DNA from: Octopus vulgaris
Taxonomy: Eukaryota
DNA: 64,000 bases
Assembly (NCBI GenBank): GCA_951406725.2
Contig: OX597835.1
Span: forward strand, 12,028,001 to 12,092,000
Reading direction: 5' to 3'
Below the pieces are notes generated by a model. It had not been told where the DNA came from and did no database searches. It saw only the letters and a list, made by a program, of their open reading frames with translations. Of the stretch, positions 1,669 through 60,986 are shown piece after piece (position 1 is the first letter of the stretch; each line of letters begins with the position of its first letter). Position numbers and translations under genes: made by a program.

Positions 1669-1740
1669 CAGGCGCAGGAGTGGCTCTGTGGTAAGTAGCT
1701 TGCTAACCAACCACATGGTTCCGGGTTCAGTCCCACTGCA
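1669..1740 (+). mobile_element. SINE family A tRNA-like head (fragment)
   Basis: GGCGCAGGAGTGGCTCTGTGGTAAG...GGTTCAGTCCCACTGC with A-box/B-box-like motifs, as in the full copy at 39641. Confidence 0.85.
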
Positions 1741-1942
1741 ATACTAGGGGGACAAACACAGACACACAAACACACACACACATATATATATATATACATA
1801 TATACGACAGGCTTCTTTCAGTTTCCGTCTACCAAATCCACTCACAAGGCATTGGTCGACCCGGGGCTATAGCAGAAGACACTTGTCCAAGATGCCACGC
1901 AGTGGACTGAACCCGGAACCATGTAGTTGGTTAGCAAGCTAC

Positions 1943-4180
1943 ATTATTTCAAAACATTTGCCATAAAGGCAGTACACAGATTAAGTTAGCTTTGCGGGCT
2001 GGACGAGGACATTAATGAGGTGAATGATAATGAAAGAAAGATGATAAGGATGGGAGAAGACAGAAAGCGCCCGCCGACTTTTGCTTCTCTAAAACATTGT
2101 TCTTTTTAAAAAAGATTAACACAAAACGAGGTATTAAACCTCTTACAATTTTTCCAATTTTGGGCTTAGCAGTCCATTATTAATACAAAACGAGGTATTA
2201 ATCCTCTTACAATTTTTCAATTTTTGGACTTAAGTCCATTACTAATAATACATATCGTCCTCGAAATAGCTTGTGCCCGCGCCCTCCACCATCAACCACG
2301 CCTCCCTCAGAACGTAGTCAAGTTCCGAGTTCGCGTCGCCCGGGACCAAGTTATAGTCTTCATTGAGCTCCTTTAGCCCTAGCGTCACGTCGAACGCCAC
2401 GGCCTCCACAGCTACCTGCGGAGGCCATTCGGGGTCCTGTGTGAAGGCTAAAGGTGCTCCCTTGTAGTGCTCTTCCATCACTTTTTCAATTTCTCCTCCT
2501 CTATAGAAGAGGACCAATACATTCAGTTCTTTCGTTGGTGGCACAGTTTCCGCCAACGGTATTCCTTCTCTTGTCGGTGGCACAACCCCAACCGACGTAG
2601 TTCCGCGACATTCCGGTGCCACACTGACAGCCGGCAACGTCCCGTTTTTCTTCCTCTTTTTCTTTTTTTTTCCCTTTTCAACTGAGGGAGGGTGCGTCAC
2701 CTCCGTGGCTGGAAGATTCGCCCTCCTCTCCTCATCCCTATTATCCTTTGGTGAGCACCCATTGTTGCTCACCTTCCTCTTTCGGCCTCTGCTTGAGGAG
2801 TCCTCTGCTTTCTCGGCCGTTATCGTTCCCTCTTCTAGAGGGGTTTTACTTAACTGTTCCGGGATCCTATTTTGTTCCCGAGGACAGTTCTTCTTTATGT
2901 GGCCGGACTCCAAGCACCGATGACACTTAGGGGGCGACCCTCAAGCATCACCGGGTACCTGCACCCGGCCATTTTCAAAAAATCTGGAAAAACCAGATTG
3001 GCTGATTGGGTCCACAGGGTCAAAACTGCTTCCGAGCCAACCCAAGCAGCCGCAGGAAGAACTTTTACATTGAGGAGCTTAGTTTCGCTGTCACCCAGAC
3101 CCCGGCGGATAGTCTCCTCTATCCACTCGGGTTCTATGTCGGGTGGCAGTCCGCAGATCCAAGCTTTCATTAATTTCTTTTTTTTGTAAGTGGGCAGGAA
3201 TAAGATTTCCTTACCCTCCAAGGGTTCGCTAGCAAATTTGCAAGCCTCTTCAGGGGTGTCAAACAGCAACCACACCGTTCCATATTTGACACCCCTGGAA
3301 ATGAATTTAATTGTTGGCAAATACTCCTCCAACTCCTCCTCAATTGCCGTCTTTTCGAATAGGGCGATGGTGTCAAGTGCCTTGGAGTAGGTTCTCAACA
3401 CCACCGTCCTATCTTCACGGTCCTTCAACCACTTTTTGGGTGGTATGATTTCCCACTCCAAAACTTTGTTATTTTTCATTGCCATGTTTTTTAAAAAATA
3501 TATTCAAATTAGACTCAAAAGCAGGAAGAAAAAAGTTCAAAAGTCTAAATAAATTTGATAGATTTTTGAAAAAACAAAAAGGAGAAAGCACAACAGAAGG
3601 GAAGAAATTAACGGAAAGTCGCAATAAAGAAAAAAACAAAAGGGGGGGGGGTAAATGAAGTTCAAAAGAAAGTTAATAAACAGAAAAAACACGGCAAAAA
3701 TATTCTGCGGTACTCCCGGCCTGGGTTGAACCTGGAACGCCGCAACTGCAACACAACCTCCACAAAAATGGGTCCGAAAGGTAATCCAATAGTGGCTTAT
3801 TTTTATACTTTTCTTGCGAAGTACTCTGACAAGGGAATAAATTCAGCAAACTCAAACACAGCACTGGTTACTGCCAACGGTAATTTTAACAGTAACTGTA
3901 TTGAATCCTGAGTATACGCCCCTCCACTGTTTTTTTTCTTTTTTTTTTTTTTTTGTTTTTTTTCAATGAACACAAAAACGGCAGCCGCCTAGCGCAGGCG
4001 AAATTGTCTCAGAGTTGGACACAACCTACTGAAATAATAATTGGCACGCAATAAATTATGCCCAACTCACAATAAACAAAATCACTTACCTCGACAACTT
4101 TCCGTTTTTGGTCTTTTTTCTTTAGTTGGACTCACGTCCACTCTAGCTCAACAAGAAGCAACCGACTAACTGCGCATGTC
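1943..4180 (-). mobile_element. ORF1-only Tx1/L1-like non-autonomous non-LTR retroelement (HAL1-like architecture)
   Basis: Bounded by a perfect 15-bp direct repeat TGGTTAGCAAGCTAC (1928-1942 and 4181-4195) that splits a SINE head. Contains a ~695-bp leader, one ORF1-like reading frame and a ~300-bp pyrimidine-rich 3' UTR with a terminal TGCC-TTTAT-GGCA stem-loop (1959-1971). No RT or endonuclease sequence. Confidence 0.85.
2242..3485 (-). pseudogene. Tx1/L1-type ORF1 (gag-like nucleic-acid-binding protein), ~414 aa if one frameshift is corrected
   Basis: ORFs 2895-3485 and 2242-2913 join if one base is added to the G5 run at 2930-2934, giving ...YPVMLEGRPPKCHRCLESGHIKKNCP... (C-X2-C-X4-H-X4-C knuckle). 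Upstream are RRM-like segments (VWLLFDTPEEA; AWICGLPPDIEPEWI); downstream are basic tracts RGRKRK and KKKKKRKK. Confidence 0.8.
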
Positions 4181-4335
4181 TGGTTAGCAAGCTACTTACC
4201 ACACAGCCACTCCTGCGCCTGATCTGATCGATGGAAAAACTTACTAATGATATTATAATAATATTATAAAGTTTTGATCATTGACGTCCTTCCAGTCAAA
4301 TGGACATGATTGACGCTGCTTTCACATTTGACCGG

Positions 4336-4894
4336 TTTTGACGTCATTTTTCCCCACCTAATCTCGACGACGGTAATGCCACTCCCTACGAAGATTGATA
4401 TTTTATTTCGATATCATTGCTGTGCAGCCATGTTCTATCACATTTCATGACACTTTTTTATTGGAATCTTCACTCCCATTTGAACCATCAGAACGCTCCT
4501 AGCTGATATTGACTCGTTTCTTTTGACGTCATTTCTTCCCACCTAATCTCGACGGCGGGAATGCCACTCCCTACGAAGATCGATATTTTATTTCGAAATC
4601 ATAGCTGTGCAGCCATGTTCTATCACATTTCATAACACTTTTTTATTGAAGTCTTCACTCCCATTTGAACCATCAGAACGCTCCTGGCTGATATTGACTC
4701 GTTTCTTTTGACGTCATTTTTTCCCACCTAATCTCGACGGCGGGAATGCCACTCCCTACGAAGATCGATATTTTATTTCGAAATCATAGCTGTGCAGCCA
4801 TGTTCTATCACATTTCATAACACTTTTTATTGAAATCTTCACTCCCATTTGAACCACCAGAACGCTCCTAGCTGATATTGACTCGTTTCTTTTG
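4336..4894. repeat. 3 tandem copies of a 184-185-bp unit
   Basis: Units begin TTTTGACGTCATTT at 4336, 4521 and 4706; high identity. Confidence 0.95.
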
Positions 4895-7532: not shown

Positions 7533-7789
7533 ATTCTACTTTATAATGAGAGTAAAAAAGAGCATTCTTAAAGTTCGGATACACATAAGGACACAAAAAT
7601 TTACCCAACGGATTCAAACCATTTACGACAATAATCTTTTAAATCAATAAGGGCCATCGCCAAAGATGTTATCAGAATAGACTGTCTAACTGTAATGCAC
7701 GAGAACATTCGATAAAAGTTATACGTTCTGAGTAGAAGCCAATTTATGCCTGCAAATACAGAAAAGAAAAACGTTTGAACCATGGCAAG

Positions 7790-8370
7790 TGTTTAACAAA
7801 TTTCTCTGATGAGGAAAACCTCGACCAAGACGAAACGTCTAACGAGAGAAAGGACAGAAGGTCATGTGAAGATCCTTCTGATGTTTCCAGAGCGATGCAC
7901 ACAAAGTTTCGACCAACTGTGATAGTTTTTAAGTGTGAGGAGGAGTAACGAAGGTCACGACAACTTAGCTCTTTCCAAAGTTTTAGAATTAATATTGATG
8001 AATACGCTGGGATACGGGAGACAGTTACTAAGGCCTAAATGAACGAAATATGCCGTAGAAGACAGACCACACATGCTTGAACAGCTTTCAGTGTCTTCTC
8101 ACAATATCCACGTGATCCAAGAATCTTAATGATCTTATAACATCGAACTTATGACGTCCTCGAAAAACGCCAGGTTCAAGTACCGTCGACTTCTACTTCA
8201 GAGCGTTGCTGAATGGGAGACTAATCAATATCCTGTACTAGCTTCACTGAATGACACCAATTTCCAGGTGATGTCACAAATGAATAAACGCCAAGCACTT
8301 AACGATTCCAATCCTGTAATGAAGCTCTTATCGACGCTAAAGGCAGTTTCGTTGATTGGTCGTATACGAA
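7790..8370 (+). pseudogene. Decayed Tc1/mariner (maT/DD37D-like) transposase
   Basis: Translates NFSDEENLDQD..SNERKDR..CEDPSDVSRAMHTKF.PTVIV and later SVAEWETNQYP and MSQMNK. These resemble the FSDEKNFDQD...NDRW...DPS.VP.VMHTKFP.TVMV and WSVVERETN motifs; many stops and frameshifts. Confidence 0.65.
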
Positions 8371-8572
8371 AATCTATCGAGAATATATACACAAATGTTT
8401 ATTTAGACACATTCTGTTTCTGCTGGATTACAGATGTTTGTAAAATTTCCAGATAGGCCCTCAAGTATATTTTTTACATATATATATAAGAGAATGGAGA
8501 AACAAATTTAGTTTGTTCATCAACTTTCGGATATTTAATTGTTGGATTATTTATTCAATTAACAAAGTGAGA

Positions 8573-8786
8573 ACCTATTTCTTTACTACCCACAAGGGGC
8601 TAAACACAGAGGGGACAAACAAGGACAGACATAGGTATTAAGTCGATTACATCGACCCCAGTGCGTAACTAGTACTTAATTAATCGACCCCGAAAGGATG
8701 AAAGGCAAAGTCGACCTCGGCGGAATTTAAACTCAGAACGTAACGGCAGACGAAATACGGCTACGCATTTCGTCCGGCGTGCTAAC
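8573..8786 (-). mobile_element. SINE family B (GTCGACTTTGCCTTTCATCCTTTCGGGGTCGATAAA core, reminiscent of the Meta domain)
   Basis: Single unit; TSD AACAAA(G/A)TGAGAACCT at 8561-8576 and 8784-8799. Confidence 0.85.
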
Positions 8787-9098
8787 AAAATGAGAACCTC
8801 AATAGTATACATATATATCTTATAATTCAATACATATAAGATAAGAATACAAATTATAAAAGTTATAAAAATCATAATATAAATTATTGAAATCGCGTTG
8901 CAATTAAAAACATTTATGTATTAAGAATCTGGGTACTTTACCAACAGTATATTGGATAAATACTATCCAATAGTGGGTTACACTCATAACCCCTATCTTA
9001 CTTTGTAGTATATATATATATAGGTGAAAAATGGTAGAGATATAGGAGAAAATGATAAAGATAAAATAAGATGTAAGGTGAAAAAGCACAGAAATATG

Positions 9099-9422
9099 TT
9101 TGTGTAGATAAAGAATATTTAATCAATTACAATGTGTATAGATTCAGTCGGTTTCGCTTCGCTAATCATGACTCAGTATTATGAAATAATAATAAGTTTT
9201 TGCTTTAATCTAGCGTCGAAGCAGATATGATCTAGTTTTGCAATTATACCAGGAGAGTCTAGCTATGCTAGCCTGTATAACATCAAAATTGGATCATACC
9301 TGCTTCAACACGAGGTTAAATCGTAAACTTGTTATTTCATAATATTGAGTCATGGTTAGCGAAGCGAAATCGGTCGTATCTGTATAGTTTGTAAAGGATC
9401 AAATTATCTTTATCTACACAAA
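9099..9422. repeat. ~325-bp fold-back palindrome
   Basis: Arms TTTGTGTAGATAAAGA.../...TCTTTATCTACACAAA, GTTTCGCTTCGCTAATCATGACTCA/TGAGTCATGGTTAGCGAAGCGAAAT and GAAGCAGATATGATC/GATCATACCTGCTTC; centre ~9265. Confidence 0.85.
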
Positions 9423-9719
9423 AAAGATTTCTGCGCTTTTTTCAACTTAAATCTTATTTTATATACATATACATAAAGTTGGCTACTATTTGATACCCCT
9501 GAGGTGGCTCGCAACTTTGCGGATCCTGTTTCTTCCCACATATTGTTTATAAAAGAGAAAAAAAAAAGAACAATGTTTTTGGGAAGCCGCGATCGGCGGG
9601 TGTCGTCTGCTTCCCTCATCAATATCATTATTTTGCTCATCATTCATCTCATTTGTGTTGTTGTCCAGTCTGCAATATGCTTCTATCTATGTGATGCCTT
9701 TATGGCAAATTTGATGTAA

Positions 9720-10101
9720 TTAAGAAGCTTGCTTCCGAACCACATGGTTCTGGGTTCAGTCTCACTGCATGTCACCTTGGGCAAGTGTCTTCTACTATAG
9801 CCTCAGGTCACCTAAAGCCTTGTGAGTAGATTTGACGGAAACTGAAAGAAGCCCGTCATATATACATATATATATATATGTTCTTGTGTCTGTGTTTGCC
9901 CCCCCCCCCCCATCAACAATCGCATGACAACCGATGTTGGTGTGTTTACGTCTCCATAATTTAGCGGTTCGGCAAAAGAGACCGATAGAATAAGTACTAG
10001 GCTTAGAAAGAATAAGTCCTGGGGTCGATTCGTTCGACTAAAGGCTGTGCTCCAGCACGGCCACAGTCAAATGACTGAAGCAAGTAGAAGAGTAAAAGAG
10101 T
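9720..10101 (+). mobile_element. SINE family A, 5'-eroded
   Basis: CACCTTGGGCAAGTGTCTTCTACTATAGCC...GACCGATAGAATAAGTACT...AGTAAAAGAG. Confidence 0.85.
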
Positions 10102-19495: not shown

Positions 19496-19627
19496 ACGGC
19501 TGTGTGGTAAGTAGCTTGTTTACCAACCACATGGTACCAAGTTCAGTCCCACTGCGTGGCACCTTGGGCAAGTGTCTTCTACTATATCTTCAAGCCGACG
19601 AAAATCTTGTGAGTGGATTTGGTAGAG
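19496..19627 (+). mobile_element. SINE family A 5' fragment
   Basis: GGCTGTGTGGTAAGTAGCTTG...GGCACCTTGGGCAAGTGTC...GAGTGGATTTGGTAGA. Confidence 0.8.
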
Positions 19628-19874
19628 GTCAATAATGTGAATAAATCGCAGTTAAAACGGAGAGGGTTTAAAACGCTTATTTGCCTAGAAATAGCAGTCA
19701 AAACTTCCATAAAGCCACTATAAATGCTCATATCCTTTTTCCTCAACCATAAACACCCTCGGCAGGCGACATGACATATAAAATTCAAAACTTAAATAAA
19801 AAAAATAAAAGGTTAGTCCTCACTTGCAGTTTCGAAGTTTGGAAATAAAAATGGATCTTCAGAACATTCATACA

Positions 19875-39580: not shown

Positions 39581-39640
39581 CATACCCGACGAACACTGAG
39601 AGATTTCTGAAACAGATCCTGTGACATTTATAATAATACC

Positions 39641-40792: not shown

Positions 40793-40919
<127 letters not shown>

Positions 40920-41139
40920 TGTATAAACATACATATATATATATGAAGAAGAAAAACGTTTATAATTATGAACAAGTCACAATTATAACTAAGAGAGTTA
41001 AAAAAAAAACCTTACATGTTAAAAGCATCAACCAAAAACACTATAAAACCATTATTTATTCATATCAATTCTCCTCACGATAAAAACTGTCCTCGAGCGA
41101 CGTGGAAATTAGAATCCACAATGTGAAAATAATTGGTGA

Positions 41140-41204
41140 ATTCCCTATTGCTATTTCGGCGTTGGTGACCACTTAAGGGACCCATTCGCCTCGTCAGGGG
41201 GAAT
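41140..41204 (-). ncRNA. Type-I hammerhead motif in an inverted-end element, 40945-41500
   Basis: AUUCCCC-CUGACGA-GGCG(25 nt)CGCC-GAAA-UAGCAAU-A-GGGAAU. Confidence 0.8.
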
Positions 41205-41597
41205 AGTACGATAGATAGAAATCAAAAGATGACTTTACCTTGAGGGATAGCATGAATCCCGACTGGCAATAGAAATGTTTCAACCTCTATCTACACAATC
41301 AAGTTTTGAATTCAAATGCCATGCACAGCGTTTATGTGAAAATCTCGAGACTACCCTCTTAGTTATAATTCTGGCTTGTTCATAATTATAAACGTTTTTC
41401 TTCTTTATATTTTATAACATGTTTGGCCATTGATATATTCATAAATAATCTTTATTTATAATATATCAATCGTAATGTTTCTATATTACTCTCTACTTAG
41501 ATATATATGTGTGTTGTGTGAGTGCATATATATACTCCTCTTCCTCTCCCCTTCTTTCTGGCTTTTCATCTTTCTCAGTCCCTCTATGCTTTTCTCT

Positions 41598-41757: not shown

Positions 41758-42341
41758 GTGACACTCATAATAAAAAGGAGTACTGGTGGAATGTCCAATT
41801 GAATACCTCAGTAAAATGTAAACACAATAGACCTGATATAGTGATTAGGGATTAAGAAGAGAAACTGTGTAAAGTTTTGGAAATCAGCTGTCGAGTGGAT
41901 GTTAACATAAAGCTGATGAGTGAAGAAGTGAATACCTACGCTGAACTATTGATAAATCTGCAGTTACTATATCCAGATTACAAGTTCAGGTTTATATCTG
42001 TAATTATTGGTGCACTGGGATGTGTAACACACAGCATAAATAAAAGTCTTGAGAAATTAGGCTTCTCAAAACCAGAAAGGGGACAGCTGATTCGAAGACT
42101 ACAACCCATCAGTGGAACTGTAAAAATCTTTAGAAATTTCCAGAAGTTTATCATTTATATATGAGCATGCAACTATATGCGTGAGAATACATACAGAAAA
42201 TAAAACATACAAATCTACACATATACATATTTTATAACATGTTTGGCCATTGATATATTCATAAATAATCTTAATTATTTATAATATATCCTTCGTAATG
42301 TTTCTATATTACTCTCTACTTACATATATATGTGTGTTGTG

Positions 42342-42432
<91 letters not shown>

Positions 42433-52514: not shown

Positions 52515-52932
<418 letters not shown>

Positions 52933-53222
52933 TGGAAAGTAATGTATAAACGTTACGGATGGTATATTATAGATAATAAGATTATTTATGAAAATGCCAA
53001 GTGGCAAAACATGTTATCATAAAATACAAAGAAGAAAAACGTTTATGATTATGAACAAGTCACAATTATAACCAAGAGGGTTAAAAAGACCCTTACATGT
53101 TAAAAATAGCAGCCAAAACCGCAATAAACCTGTTATATCACTCATAATATTTCTCCACACGATAAAAACTCTCTTCGGTTGACAGAGAAATTAGTATCTA
53201 TAACTTGAAAATAACTGGCTAA

Positions 53223-53284
53223 TTCCCTATTGCAATTTCGACGTTAGAGACCTCTTAAGGGACCCATTCGTCTCATCAGGGAAA
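53223..53284 (-). ncRNA. Type-I hammerhead motif in element 52929-53310 (same family as 40945-41500)
   Basis: UUUCC-CUGAUGA-GACG(25 nt)CGUC-GAAA-UUGCAAU-A-GGGAA; canonical core and palindromic AUUGCAAU helix III. Confidence 0.85.
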
Positions 53285-54408
53285 ATATTCCTATAGATAG
53301 AAATCAAAATAAGAAGGGAAGGCGGAAGAGACGGAGAATGGAGAGAAGGAGAAAGAAGAGAAAGACAAGGAGGTAGAAGGAGGAAGAAAAGAATGGGAGA
53401 AAGAGAAGAAAACGAATGAGAATGCAAGAATAATAACGCAAGGAAACGAAGAGAGATAAAAATAGTTTTTAAAAAAAAAGAGAAAAGGAGGGAGATGAGA
53501 GGGAGGAAGTGAGTGTAATAAGAAAATTTTTCTGAAGAAAAGGAAGTGTAAGAAAGGAGTAGAAAATGAATTGAAGTTTAGTATTTAATACCCAACAACT
53601 CCCAGATGGAGCCTCCAAATTAGCGCCATTTCTGCTGTTTTACAATACCCGGACGCTGCATATCGCTGGTTTGTCGTCATTTTCTTTAGAGAAGACCAAG
53701 CTGCTAGACAGGTAGATTTCCCTATGGCTGAAGACATGATGTCTCTACTACTTTGGTTCTCACAAACATTAGAACCGTAATCCAATGAATTCAGTTGAGT
53801 ATAGAAACATTATAAAACGCTTTGGTTGTTGTTGATTGGAAATTTTTTTGCGAAATACTGTCGTGTCAATTCCCAATAACATTCAGAAAGTAAATTACGA
53901 TTGGTGATATGACTTATGTTATATAACAAACTATTTAAAACAAGCGAGAAATAGCGCTGAGTACAGCTGGTGTTTCCAATAGTAATTAGATTGCGCAGCA
54001 TTTTATTCTTACAAGCATAGCACAATGTCGAAAATTTCCCGCTATGCCGAATTGTTGAAAACAATGTTAAATTGTCGAAAACAATATATTAAATTATCGA
54101 TAATCAATGTGTTAAATAGTTGTCAAAAAATTCTCTACTAATTCTTCATAAACCTACTTCCGCTAGGTTACAGATCGAAATGAATATTACAAAAATTCAA
54201 TATTTGCGTCGCTTCTTTGCAGAGTGTCGCTGAATAAAGGAGTGACCTTTAAGTTGAGGTGGCGAGACAGTTTCAATCTTTTGTTGCCATCGATACCAAT
54301 CACTCTTTCAAATATCTTCAACGCCACGTTTGTTACCATTTGCATTTCTTTCATTCTATAAGTTTCTAAGAAATTGACCACAAGAGAACCAATTTTTTTT
54401 TTTTTTGA

Positions 54409-59940: not shown

Positions 59941-60597
59941 TAGGCACAGGGTGGCTCTGTGGTAAGACGTTTACTTCCCATCCACATGGTTCCGGGTTAT
60001 GTCCTACAGCGTGGCACCTTGGGTAAATGTCTAACCTCAGGCCGACCAAAGTCTTATGAGTGTATTTGGTTTTAACTAAAACTGAAAGAATCCTGATTTG
60101 TTGTTTATGCTCCCTTACTCTGTCTATTAAATTTCTTCGTTCTCGGCCGTTTTCAACTGCATTGTGGATTTGTATAAAAGTAAATAAGATTTATGTCCGA
60201 CTTATGTCCTACAGCGTGGCACCTTGGGTAAATGTCTAACCTCAGGCCGACCAAAGTCTTATGAGTGTATTTGGTTAACTGAAACTGAAAGAACCCTGAT
60301 TTGTTGTTTATGCTCCCTTACTCTGTCTATTAAATTTCTTCGTTCTCGGCCGTTTTCAGCTGCATTGTGGATTTGTATAAAAGTAAATAAGATTTATGTC
60401 CGACTTATGTCCTACAGCGTGGCACCTTGGGTAAATGTCTAACCTCAGGCCGACCAAAGTCTTATGAGTGTATTTGGTTAACTAAAACTGAAAGAATTCT
60501 GATTTGTTGTTTATGCTCCCTTACTCTGTCTATTAAATTTCTTCGTTCTCGGCCGTTTTCAGCTGCATTGTGGATTTGTATAAAAGTAAATAAGATT
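59941..60597 (+). repeat. Degenerate SINE A head followed by 3 tandem 203-205-bp units (SINE fragment + flank)
   Basis: Units begin TTATGTCCTACAGCGTGGCACC at 59997, 60202 and 60405. Confidence 0.92.
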
Positions 60598-60986
60598 TTT
60601 GCTTAGTAATTTATATTTGTATTAAGCTTAAATTTATTCTCATTCTTCAGCTTTTTTGTCACAAACATTTATGTTGAATGTTACTCGTTTTCCCACACCA
60701 AACTATGTGAACTGTAGTTTATTAACACCATTACTAAGAGTGCGGATCCTCCTGCATACTTGCCATATAATAACGATTATTGACCTATACACACATAAAG
60801 TGGCAAATCCTTTCCTAAATTACTGGTTAGTTAATTGATATCGTTAAATAAATTAATAGTCAAAATCAGTTAATAAATCTTAATTAATAATTGCCCCAAA
60901 TACTTTAAATTTGTTGAATTCACTTCTCGACTAATCATTATCTTATCGTTTTAGATACACTCAATCCATTTATAATTGATGGTCAC

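Follow-up and report, generated by a model that had tools for sequence, protein, structure and literature searches.

Related non-LTR retrotransposon copies at one position in the promoter head of an abundant octopus SINE: evidence for site-specific insertion

Introduction

Known safe targets of site-specific LINEs include rRNA, snRNA and tRNA genes, microsatellites and telomeres as well as DNA and LTR transposons (PMC5035012, PMC4494074). Elements of the Tx1 clade have been described to target DNA transposons, LTR elements, U2 and microsatellites; Xenopus Tx1L targets Tx1D, and the crocodilian elements Tx1-Mar, Tx1-8_Crp, Tx1-4_AMi and Tx1-9_AMi target Mariner-N4, LTR elements and Harbinger (PMC4494074). 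In the same study, a family is regarded as target-specific if more than 20% of its genome-wide flanks correspond to the target. Other non-LTR elements are specific for small-RNA genes, such as Keno and Utopia (U2), Mutsu (5S) and Dewa (tRNA-Leu spacer) (PMC4640811, PMC3706591), and tRNA genes are targeted by LIN15_SM (tRNA-Arg), LIN25_SM (tRNA-Glu) and NeSL-1_TV (tRNA-Pro) (PMC4640811). Typical of target-specific families is a precise 3' junction in combination with a variable or missing 5' half of the target (PMC4640811).

In Octopus vulgaris, SINEs make up 11.6% of the genome, and L1-Tx1 elements are represented by recently active families (13 families, 421 insertions; PMC13282606); the word 'target' does not occur in the main text of that paper. 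The tRNA-derived octopus SINEs OR1 and OR2 (CORE superfamily) go back to Ohshima and Okada 1994, cited in PMC4824008 and PMC4758252. Within the articles that our literature search covered, neither a LINE with specificity for SINE heads nor a target-specific Tx1 element in octopus has been described; an earlier description may exist elsewhere.

Here, we analyse a stretch of 64,000 nt from O. vulgaris (contig OX597835.1, positions 12,028,001 to 12,092,000; referred to as the window), for which sequence-specific insertion of a transposon into the head of an abundant SINE, here called SINE A, had been proposed from a single site.

Results and discussion

SINE A and the insertion site of copy 1

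SINE A is present in the window with 12 heads and 17 segments, which cover 6.5% of the sequence. The original prediction named it the most abundant SINE; it is the most abundant interspersed repeat by a modest margin compared to a second family with 12 loci. The loci of this second family include 8633-8787, and no copy of the element described below adjoins any of them. The window is rich in microsatellites, with tandem repeats masking 23% of it. In the intact SINE A copy at 39640, the A and B boxes are 43 nt apart, a tRNA-like spacing, with one mismatch each to the consensus motifs. ARAGORN detected no tRNA gene in the window, and two intact SINE A heads had no tRNA match in Rfam at E<=10. 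A tRNA score is often lost in diverged SINE heads. We call SINE A tRNA-derived because of its box motifs and what is known of octopus SINEs. Like OR1 and OR2, it is an octopus-type SINE of about 420 bp with an A/B-box head, and it is plausibly one of the three octopus SINE families described by Ohshima and Okada 1994.

One SINE A head is interrupted by an insert of 2,238 bp (copy 1), which is flanked by perfect 15-bp direct repeats (Table 1). On the minus strand, the target-site duplication (TSD) reads GTAGCTTGCTAACCA. This 15-mer has five exact occurrences in the window, two being the TSD copies themselves and three lying in empty SINE A heads (1695, 7514 and 39662); the empty site at 1695 is only about 230 bp away from the filled one. 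The A-box-like 11-mer of the host deviates from the consensus at one position and the B-box-like 11-mer at two (one in the intact SINE A copy), and 3 nt separate the A-box-like motif from the start of the TSD. In silico excision of the insert together with one repeat rebuilds a minus-strand SINE A head in the order A box, three bases, 15-mer, B box. The proposed position of the TSD between the A-box-like and B-box-like motifs is thus confirmed by the coordinates, and so is the proposed orientation of the insert, as the minus strand carries ORF1 as well as the SINE head. From the 3' half of the host SINE, the final ~170 nt are absent.

Table 1 Features of the two element copies and their host SINEs. 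Positions refer to the window.
Feature	Position	Strand	Basis or remark
Element copy 1, ORF1-only non-LTR retrotransposon, both ends present, without poly(A) tail	1943..4180	-	TSD, ORFs, termini
5' UTR of copy 1, 695 nt	3486..4180	-	T-runs from element position 100
ORF1, N-terminal part (ATG at 3485)	2898..3485	-	Two tandem RRM folds predicted
ORF1, C-terminal part, different frame	2245..2940	-	One CCHC zinc knuckle, then low-complexity tail
Tandem duplication of ~69 bp	2115..2247	-	Between ORF1 stop and conserved 3' end
3' terminal region common to copies 1 and 2	1943..2107	-	Invariant 4-bp hairpin at 1959-1971
TSD, 3'-side copy	1928..1942	-	Perfect repeat; inside the originally predicted feature (1921-1945)
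TSD, 5'-side copy	4181..4195	-	Perfect repeat
Host SINE A of copy 1, 5' half	4196..4221	-	A-box-like motif 4199-4209
Host SINE A of copy 1, 3' half, young subfamily	1738..1927	-	B-box-like motif 1903-1913
Element copy 2, old, internally deleted relative of copy 1	9468..9723	+	ORF1 scrap ~9468-9551 joined to 3' region 9563-9723
Host SINE A of copy 2, older subfamily	9724..10100	+	Starts at nick register

In target-primed reverse transcription (TPRT), the 3' junction marks the first nick, and the length of the TSD marks the offset of the second cut. Copy 1 carries the corresponding signature: it has the 15-bp TSD and neither LTRs nor terminal inverted repeats, the internal 69-bp duplication being the only match in a self-BLAST of the insert. 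We infer that its priming nick lay at 1942/1943. Inverted repeats of 41 bp around 1669-4221 were considered as ends of a DNA transposon. They represent two SINE A heads, and this reading was rejected because the insert and its TSD sit within one of them.

Two further observations concern the surroundings of copy 1. At 1669-1741, an inverted SINE A head (plus strand) is joined to the truncated body of copy 1's host SINE, a fusion that probably arose from a deletion between two convergent SINE A copies. Directly past the 5' end of the host SINE, about three tandem copies of a ~178-bp unit follow (~4330-4890).

Copy 1 encodes an ORF1 protein of predicted RRM-RRM-CCHC architecture

The reading frame of ORF1 is broken near 2931-2940. 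A search of 1.84 billion representative proteins revealed 33 relatives at E<=0.001, the closest of which is 74% identical and continues across the frame break into the CCHC knuckle. This knuckle corresponds to PF00098 with an E-value of 0.0037, under the curated cut-off. An AlphaFold model based on 23 sequences (the protein from the window and 22 of the 33 relatives) reached a mean pLDDT of 88 and had 12 Foldseek matches to tandem-RRM proteins at E<=0.001; the VIA Z of about 8 per half indicates a common fold only. Together, these data predict an RRM-RRM-CCHC protein of Type I architecture. Type I ORF1 proteins, with RRM and CCHC, are reported to be consistent with Tx1 in non-mammalian animals and are, in the same report, not confined to Tx1 (PMC5203782). 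Copy 1 therefore shows the ORF1 type expected of a Tx1 member, a trait that is not diagnostic, as other clades carry it as well and the look-alikes in the Atlas are mixed.

According to an ORF survey of the window, ORF2 is absent from both element copies. In copy 1, the place where it would be expected is taken by the ~69-bp tandem duplication, the units of which are 89% identical. Copy 1 encodes ORF1 alone. In copy 2, the region that would show ORF2 has been deleted, so that this copy is uninformative in this respect. Copy 1 is hence a non-autonomous, HAL1-like non-LTR element. Among its homologues, no reverse transcriptase (RT) or endonuclease Pfam family was detected in the 32 that were scanned, five of which contained zf-CCHC at E<=0.05. 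Likewise, we found no longer or fused homologue with RT or endonuclease (ORF1 profile, 0 of 7,994), and a search of 1,264 candidates among longer proteins returned one match, a chimeric gene model of Octopus sinensis. This model, P0001, is the only named protein relative of ORF1, with 39 of 45 residues in common in one stretch, a match that by itself marks the host as likely an octopus. It is annotated as 'K02A2.6-like', combines an exon of copy 1's ORF1 family with an integrase fragment and is likely an annotation artefact. A protein search for an antisense peptide spanning copy 1's 5' junction yielded no candidate, and no convincing ribozyme or other Rfam match was found in the 5' UTR of copy 1. 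Among bacterial and archaeal genome contigs, a 25-nt pattern derived from both 3' ends had 0 matches, and of 241 pattern hits obtained with ORF1 none was confirmed, as is to be expected of prokaryotic sequences.

A second copy abuts SINE A at the same register

The final 162 nt of copy 1 match positions 9563-9722 with 72% identity (E=7e-21), and 116 of 161 aligned columns are identical between both 3' ends. This second copy abuts a SINE A at 9723/9724 and is oriented as that SINE, whose first base corresponds to the one with which the TSD of copy 1 starts. The alignment of the copies is gap-free across the last ~36 nt of the elements and the junction. Both junctions agree within 0-3 nt, three terminal bases being readable as either element or SINE. 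Hence, the 3' junctions of both copies coincide precisely within one type of repeat (n=2), and since the hypothesis had been stated before copy 2 was found, copy 2 represents a prospective test of it. The idea of sequence-specific targeting of the SINE A head thereby gains support from a second, independent insertion in the same register and orientation, with n=2.

A 5' part, a 5' TSD and an upstream SINE half of copy 2 were not found within 7540-9700, where the best probes had 13 of 28 and 6 of 15 mismatches. Copy 2 is immediately preceded, at 9061-9462, by a palindromic element of about 400 bp with 78% identity to its own reverse complement, which is single in the window and may be linked to the loss of copy 2's 5' part.

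A DNA profile of the two 3' ends detected only these two loci at E<0.4 in 64 kb, with the next match at E=0.46. Neither this profile nor an ORF1 protein profile, which is not very sensitive and also misses the ORF1 scrap of copy 2, revealed further family members in the window. Both element copies in the window are thus located at the SINE A register. Conversely, two of 11 SINE A heads that keep the register are filled; of the 12 heads listed, one starts 6 nt beyond the register and was not counted.

The two insertions are probably independent events

A single ancient insertion could produce the same picture if it was later multiplied through segmental duplication, through gene conversion between SINEs or as an element-plus-SINE composite that retrotransposed, and so could chance. 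The copies are indeed close together, and copy 2 lacks a 5' SINE half and TSD, as would be expected of a 5'-truncated composite. We therefore compared the host SINEs over 140 nt downstream of the register, using 12 of 15 BLAST hits (at least 95 aligned nt kept). Copy 1's host shares 97.8% identity with an empty neighbour, compared to 84.4% with the host of copy 2. It clusters with three empty young SINE A copies (support 99/97), and a tree forcing both hosts together was rejected (AU test, p-AU 0.0025; 10 rows, after removal of two headless tandem copies and trimming of 6 non-homologous nt from one row). All four diagnostic young/old columns separate the hosts, that of copy 1 being young and that of copy 2 old. 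Column 86 is common to both hosts and occurs in none of eight empty copies. The insertions are considered independent because their hosts belong to different SINE subfamilies.

The age of copy 1 points in the same direction. If its age equalled that of the 28% split between the elements, identity of its TSD copies at 15 of 15 positions would have a probability of 0.007, which argues that copy 1 is far younger than this split. Duplication of one old event is accordingly unlikely: the hosts' subfamilies differ, the elements have diverged by 28%, and copy 1 carries a perfect TSD of the young type. Even if copy 2 had travelled as part of a composite, its junction would document an insertion of its own in the shared register. 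A search for a TSD flanking the putative composite found none, which is a weak test, as an ordinary SINE A copy also showed none.

With regard to chance, SINE A does receive unrelated insertions: another repeat splits a SINE A at 19626. It does so in a different register, and none of its relatives near 40946, 42228 and 52931 is located in SINE A, so that this repeat serves as a control. The probability that a random second insertion falls within 3 nt of the register in the same orientation is 6.6e-4 (0.8% given that it lands in SINE A), and pure chance is disfavoured at about 7e-4. Overall, we regard a copied insertion or coincidence as very improbable. Since the two insertions are independent and precisely placed, we are highly confident that site specificity of some kind is involved, whether for SINE heads, tRNA genes or a short motif.

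Length of the recognised motif and nature of the target

The extent to which a motif around the nick singles out SINE A depends on its length. All eight occurrences of TAA|GWAGCTTG in the window are at SINE A heads, compared to 8 of 12 sites for TAA|GWAGC, 8 of 26 for TAA|GWAG, 10 of 458 (2%) for TAA|G and 10 of 2179 for AA|G. An endonuclease with a short preference of 6-8 nt, e.g. TAA|GWAG, might therefore find SINE A merely rich in sites. Given the proportions for TAA|GWAG and TAA|GWAGC, two SINE insertions would not be rare under this model, and a 7-nt preference (TAA|GWAG) would also yield the present result fairly often. Preferences of 5 nt or less are insufficient in view of the counts for TAA|G and AA|G, which makes a preference of only 4 nt unlikely, and a motif of at least 8 nt is nearly confined to SINE A, at which point the model merges with SINE targeting. 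Taken together, we consider a short preference improbable.

The main rival to SINE targeting is that the element evolved to insert into a multicopy tRNA gene with which the SINE head is related, and that SINE A copies are hit as by-catch because their A-box region resembles it. Families with such a specificity exist (PMC4640811), insertions of Dada transposons cluster in the A box and anticodon regions (PMC8869645), and octopus SINEs are described as tRNA-derived in the title of Ohshima and Okada 1994. Furthermore, the TSD registers of the two insertions are mismatched at 4 of 15 positions, which implies that recognition tolerates such deviations. As all but one of these differences are distal, recognition is probably centred on the nick. 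The SINE head has, however, diverged past tRNA recognition, and a real tRNA gene would probably be more different from the two hosts than these are from each other. Two filled heads out of 11 in one window is also a high proportion for by-catch. We thus judge a tRNA-gene target to be unlikely, with about one chance in five.

Several points count against SINE-head targeting as well: there are two insertions only, 5.5 kb apart in one window; copy 2 is without 5' end, TSD and upstream SINE half, and its junction is ambiguous by 3 nt; and column 86 is shared by the two hosts alone. We lean towards the SINE head as the actual target, with moderate confidence. A similar degree of confidence applies to the reading as a whole, according to which the copies probably belong to a site-specific non-LTR family that inserts by TPRT into the SINE A head just past the A box.

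Proposed insertion mechanism and the promoter question

Under the SINE-head reading, an autonomous partner elsewhere in the genome would supply ORF2, with endonuclease and RT, in trans. This partner would most likely be of the L1/Tx1 type with an apurinic-like endonuclease, which may read about 8-15 bp around TAA|GWAGCTTG. The first nick, in the antisense strand 3 nt beyond the A box, would provide the primer for cDNA synthesis starting at the non-poly(A) 3' end of the element, and the second cut would follow on the other strand 15 nt further downstream. The element could benefit from a very large pool of dispensable targets, i.e. a safe haven.

The best match between the 3' ends of the element and SINE A comprises 11 of 12 nt (E=0.34), so that a LINE-SINE common 3' tail was not found. 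SINE A is therefore regarded as target and not as passenger of the element.

It had also been suggested that the SINE might provide the element with an upstream promoter. This part of the original prediction is not supported, as only the A box is left upstream and the B box has been moved 2.2 kb away. In the first 150 nt of the element, there is no B-box-like 11-mer with fewer than four mismatches, and the best 9-mer core has two mismatches. In addition, T4 and T5 runs at element positions 100 and 203 are expected to stop Pol III. A Pol III transcript from the upstream SINE half is unlikely in view of these T-runs and the missing B box, and Pol III read-through from this half was rejected given the displaced B box and the T-runs. 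Because the insertion splits the Pol III promoter of the SINE, transcription of the element is likely driven by its own 695-nt 5' UTR or by flanking read-through.

The 3' ends of both copies contain an invariant 4-bp hairpin (1959-1971 and 9695-9707), which ends 16 nt before the junction. Judged from sequence, it is a candidate recognition signal for the RT; none of its four pairs shows covariation. Compared to the SINE A box plus three bases, the hairpin motif, which is the best-conserved motif of the element's 3' end, agrees at 10 of 14 positions in both copies, a value reached by 20 and 44 of 2,000 shuffles in a comparison that is post hoc and involves two non-independent copies. The aligner pairs the motif with the SINE A box, leaving a 15-nt gap. 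The motif is 58 nt away from the downstream B box, as opposed to 43 nt for the native A box, and in copy 1 a T4 run lies between the two. It may be speculated that the motif re-equips the downstream SINE half with an A box and hence a promoter, which would sustain the supply of targets for the element; the sequence hints at this weakly, and we mention it as a lead only.

Comparison with known systems

The element resembles Tx1L and the crocodilian Tx1 families in its fixed position within another abundant transposon and in its Type I ORF1. The TSD size is also near that of the Tx1 group, with 15 bp here and 16 bp quoted for SINEU-3 (PMC4494074). In contrast to these families, the element has as its target the Pol III promoter head of a SINE and neither a DNA transposon nor an LTR element, it comes from a mollusc, and the copies seen are without ORF2. 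The comparison with Tx1 is reasonable, and the element is a candidate member of the clade.

With the elements specific for small-RNA genes, it shares the precise 3' junction in a small-RNA-like sequence and the often missing 5' target half. Those elements target functional, conserved genes, whereas SINE A heads are dispensable, diverging (84% identity between the two hosts) and mobile. As SINE heads themselves retrotranspose, the target pool of the element grows. Dada elements likewise have the A box of a Pol III type 2 promoter, or its immediate vicinity, as insertion site (PMC8869645); they are DNA transposons with a 6-bp TSD inside the A box, whereas here a retroelement with a 15-bp TSD is found 3 nt past it. 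Like HAL1 (half-L1; PMC5753468), the element is non-autonomous and encodes only ORF1. It differs from HAL1 in its ORF1 type, the missing poly(A) tail and its probable site specificity, and the ORF1-only form is seen in one copy.

If SINE-head targeting is true, the SINE head would be a new class of target that is non-essential, extremely abundant and self-renewing, and a jumping gene would live inside the promoter of another jumping gene as a harmless landing site. Insertions across SINE subfamilies would provide a dated series for tracking endonuclease specificity against target drift, and the system would bear on how specificity moves between tRNA genes and SINE derivatives. With every insertion a SINE promoter is split, and the element may thereby also curb the activity of SINEs. 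Somewhat short of an even chance, we tentatively consider that a long-lived octopus LINE lineage has specialised on the promoter head of the commonest SINE, across subfamilies and over 28% divergence.

Other repeats in the window

The repeat that splits SINE A at 19626 belongs to a family with members at 19626-19760, 40946-41525, 42228-42348 and 52931-53309, and inverted segments occur at 40906-41497. At 59947-60601, an old SINE A is followed by a tandem triplication of ~203 bp that includes part of the SINE body.
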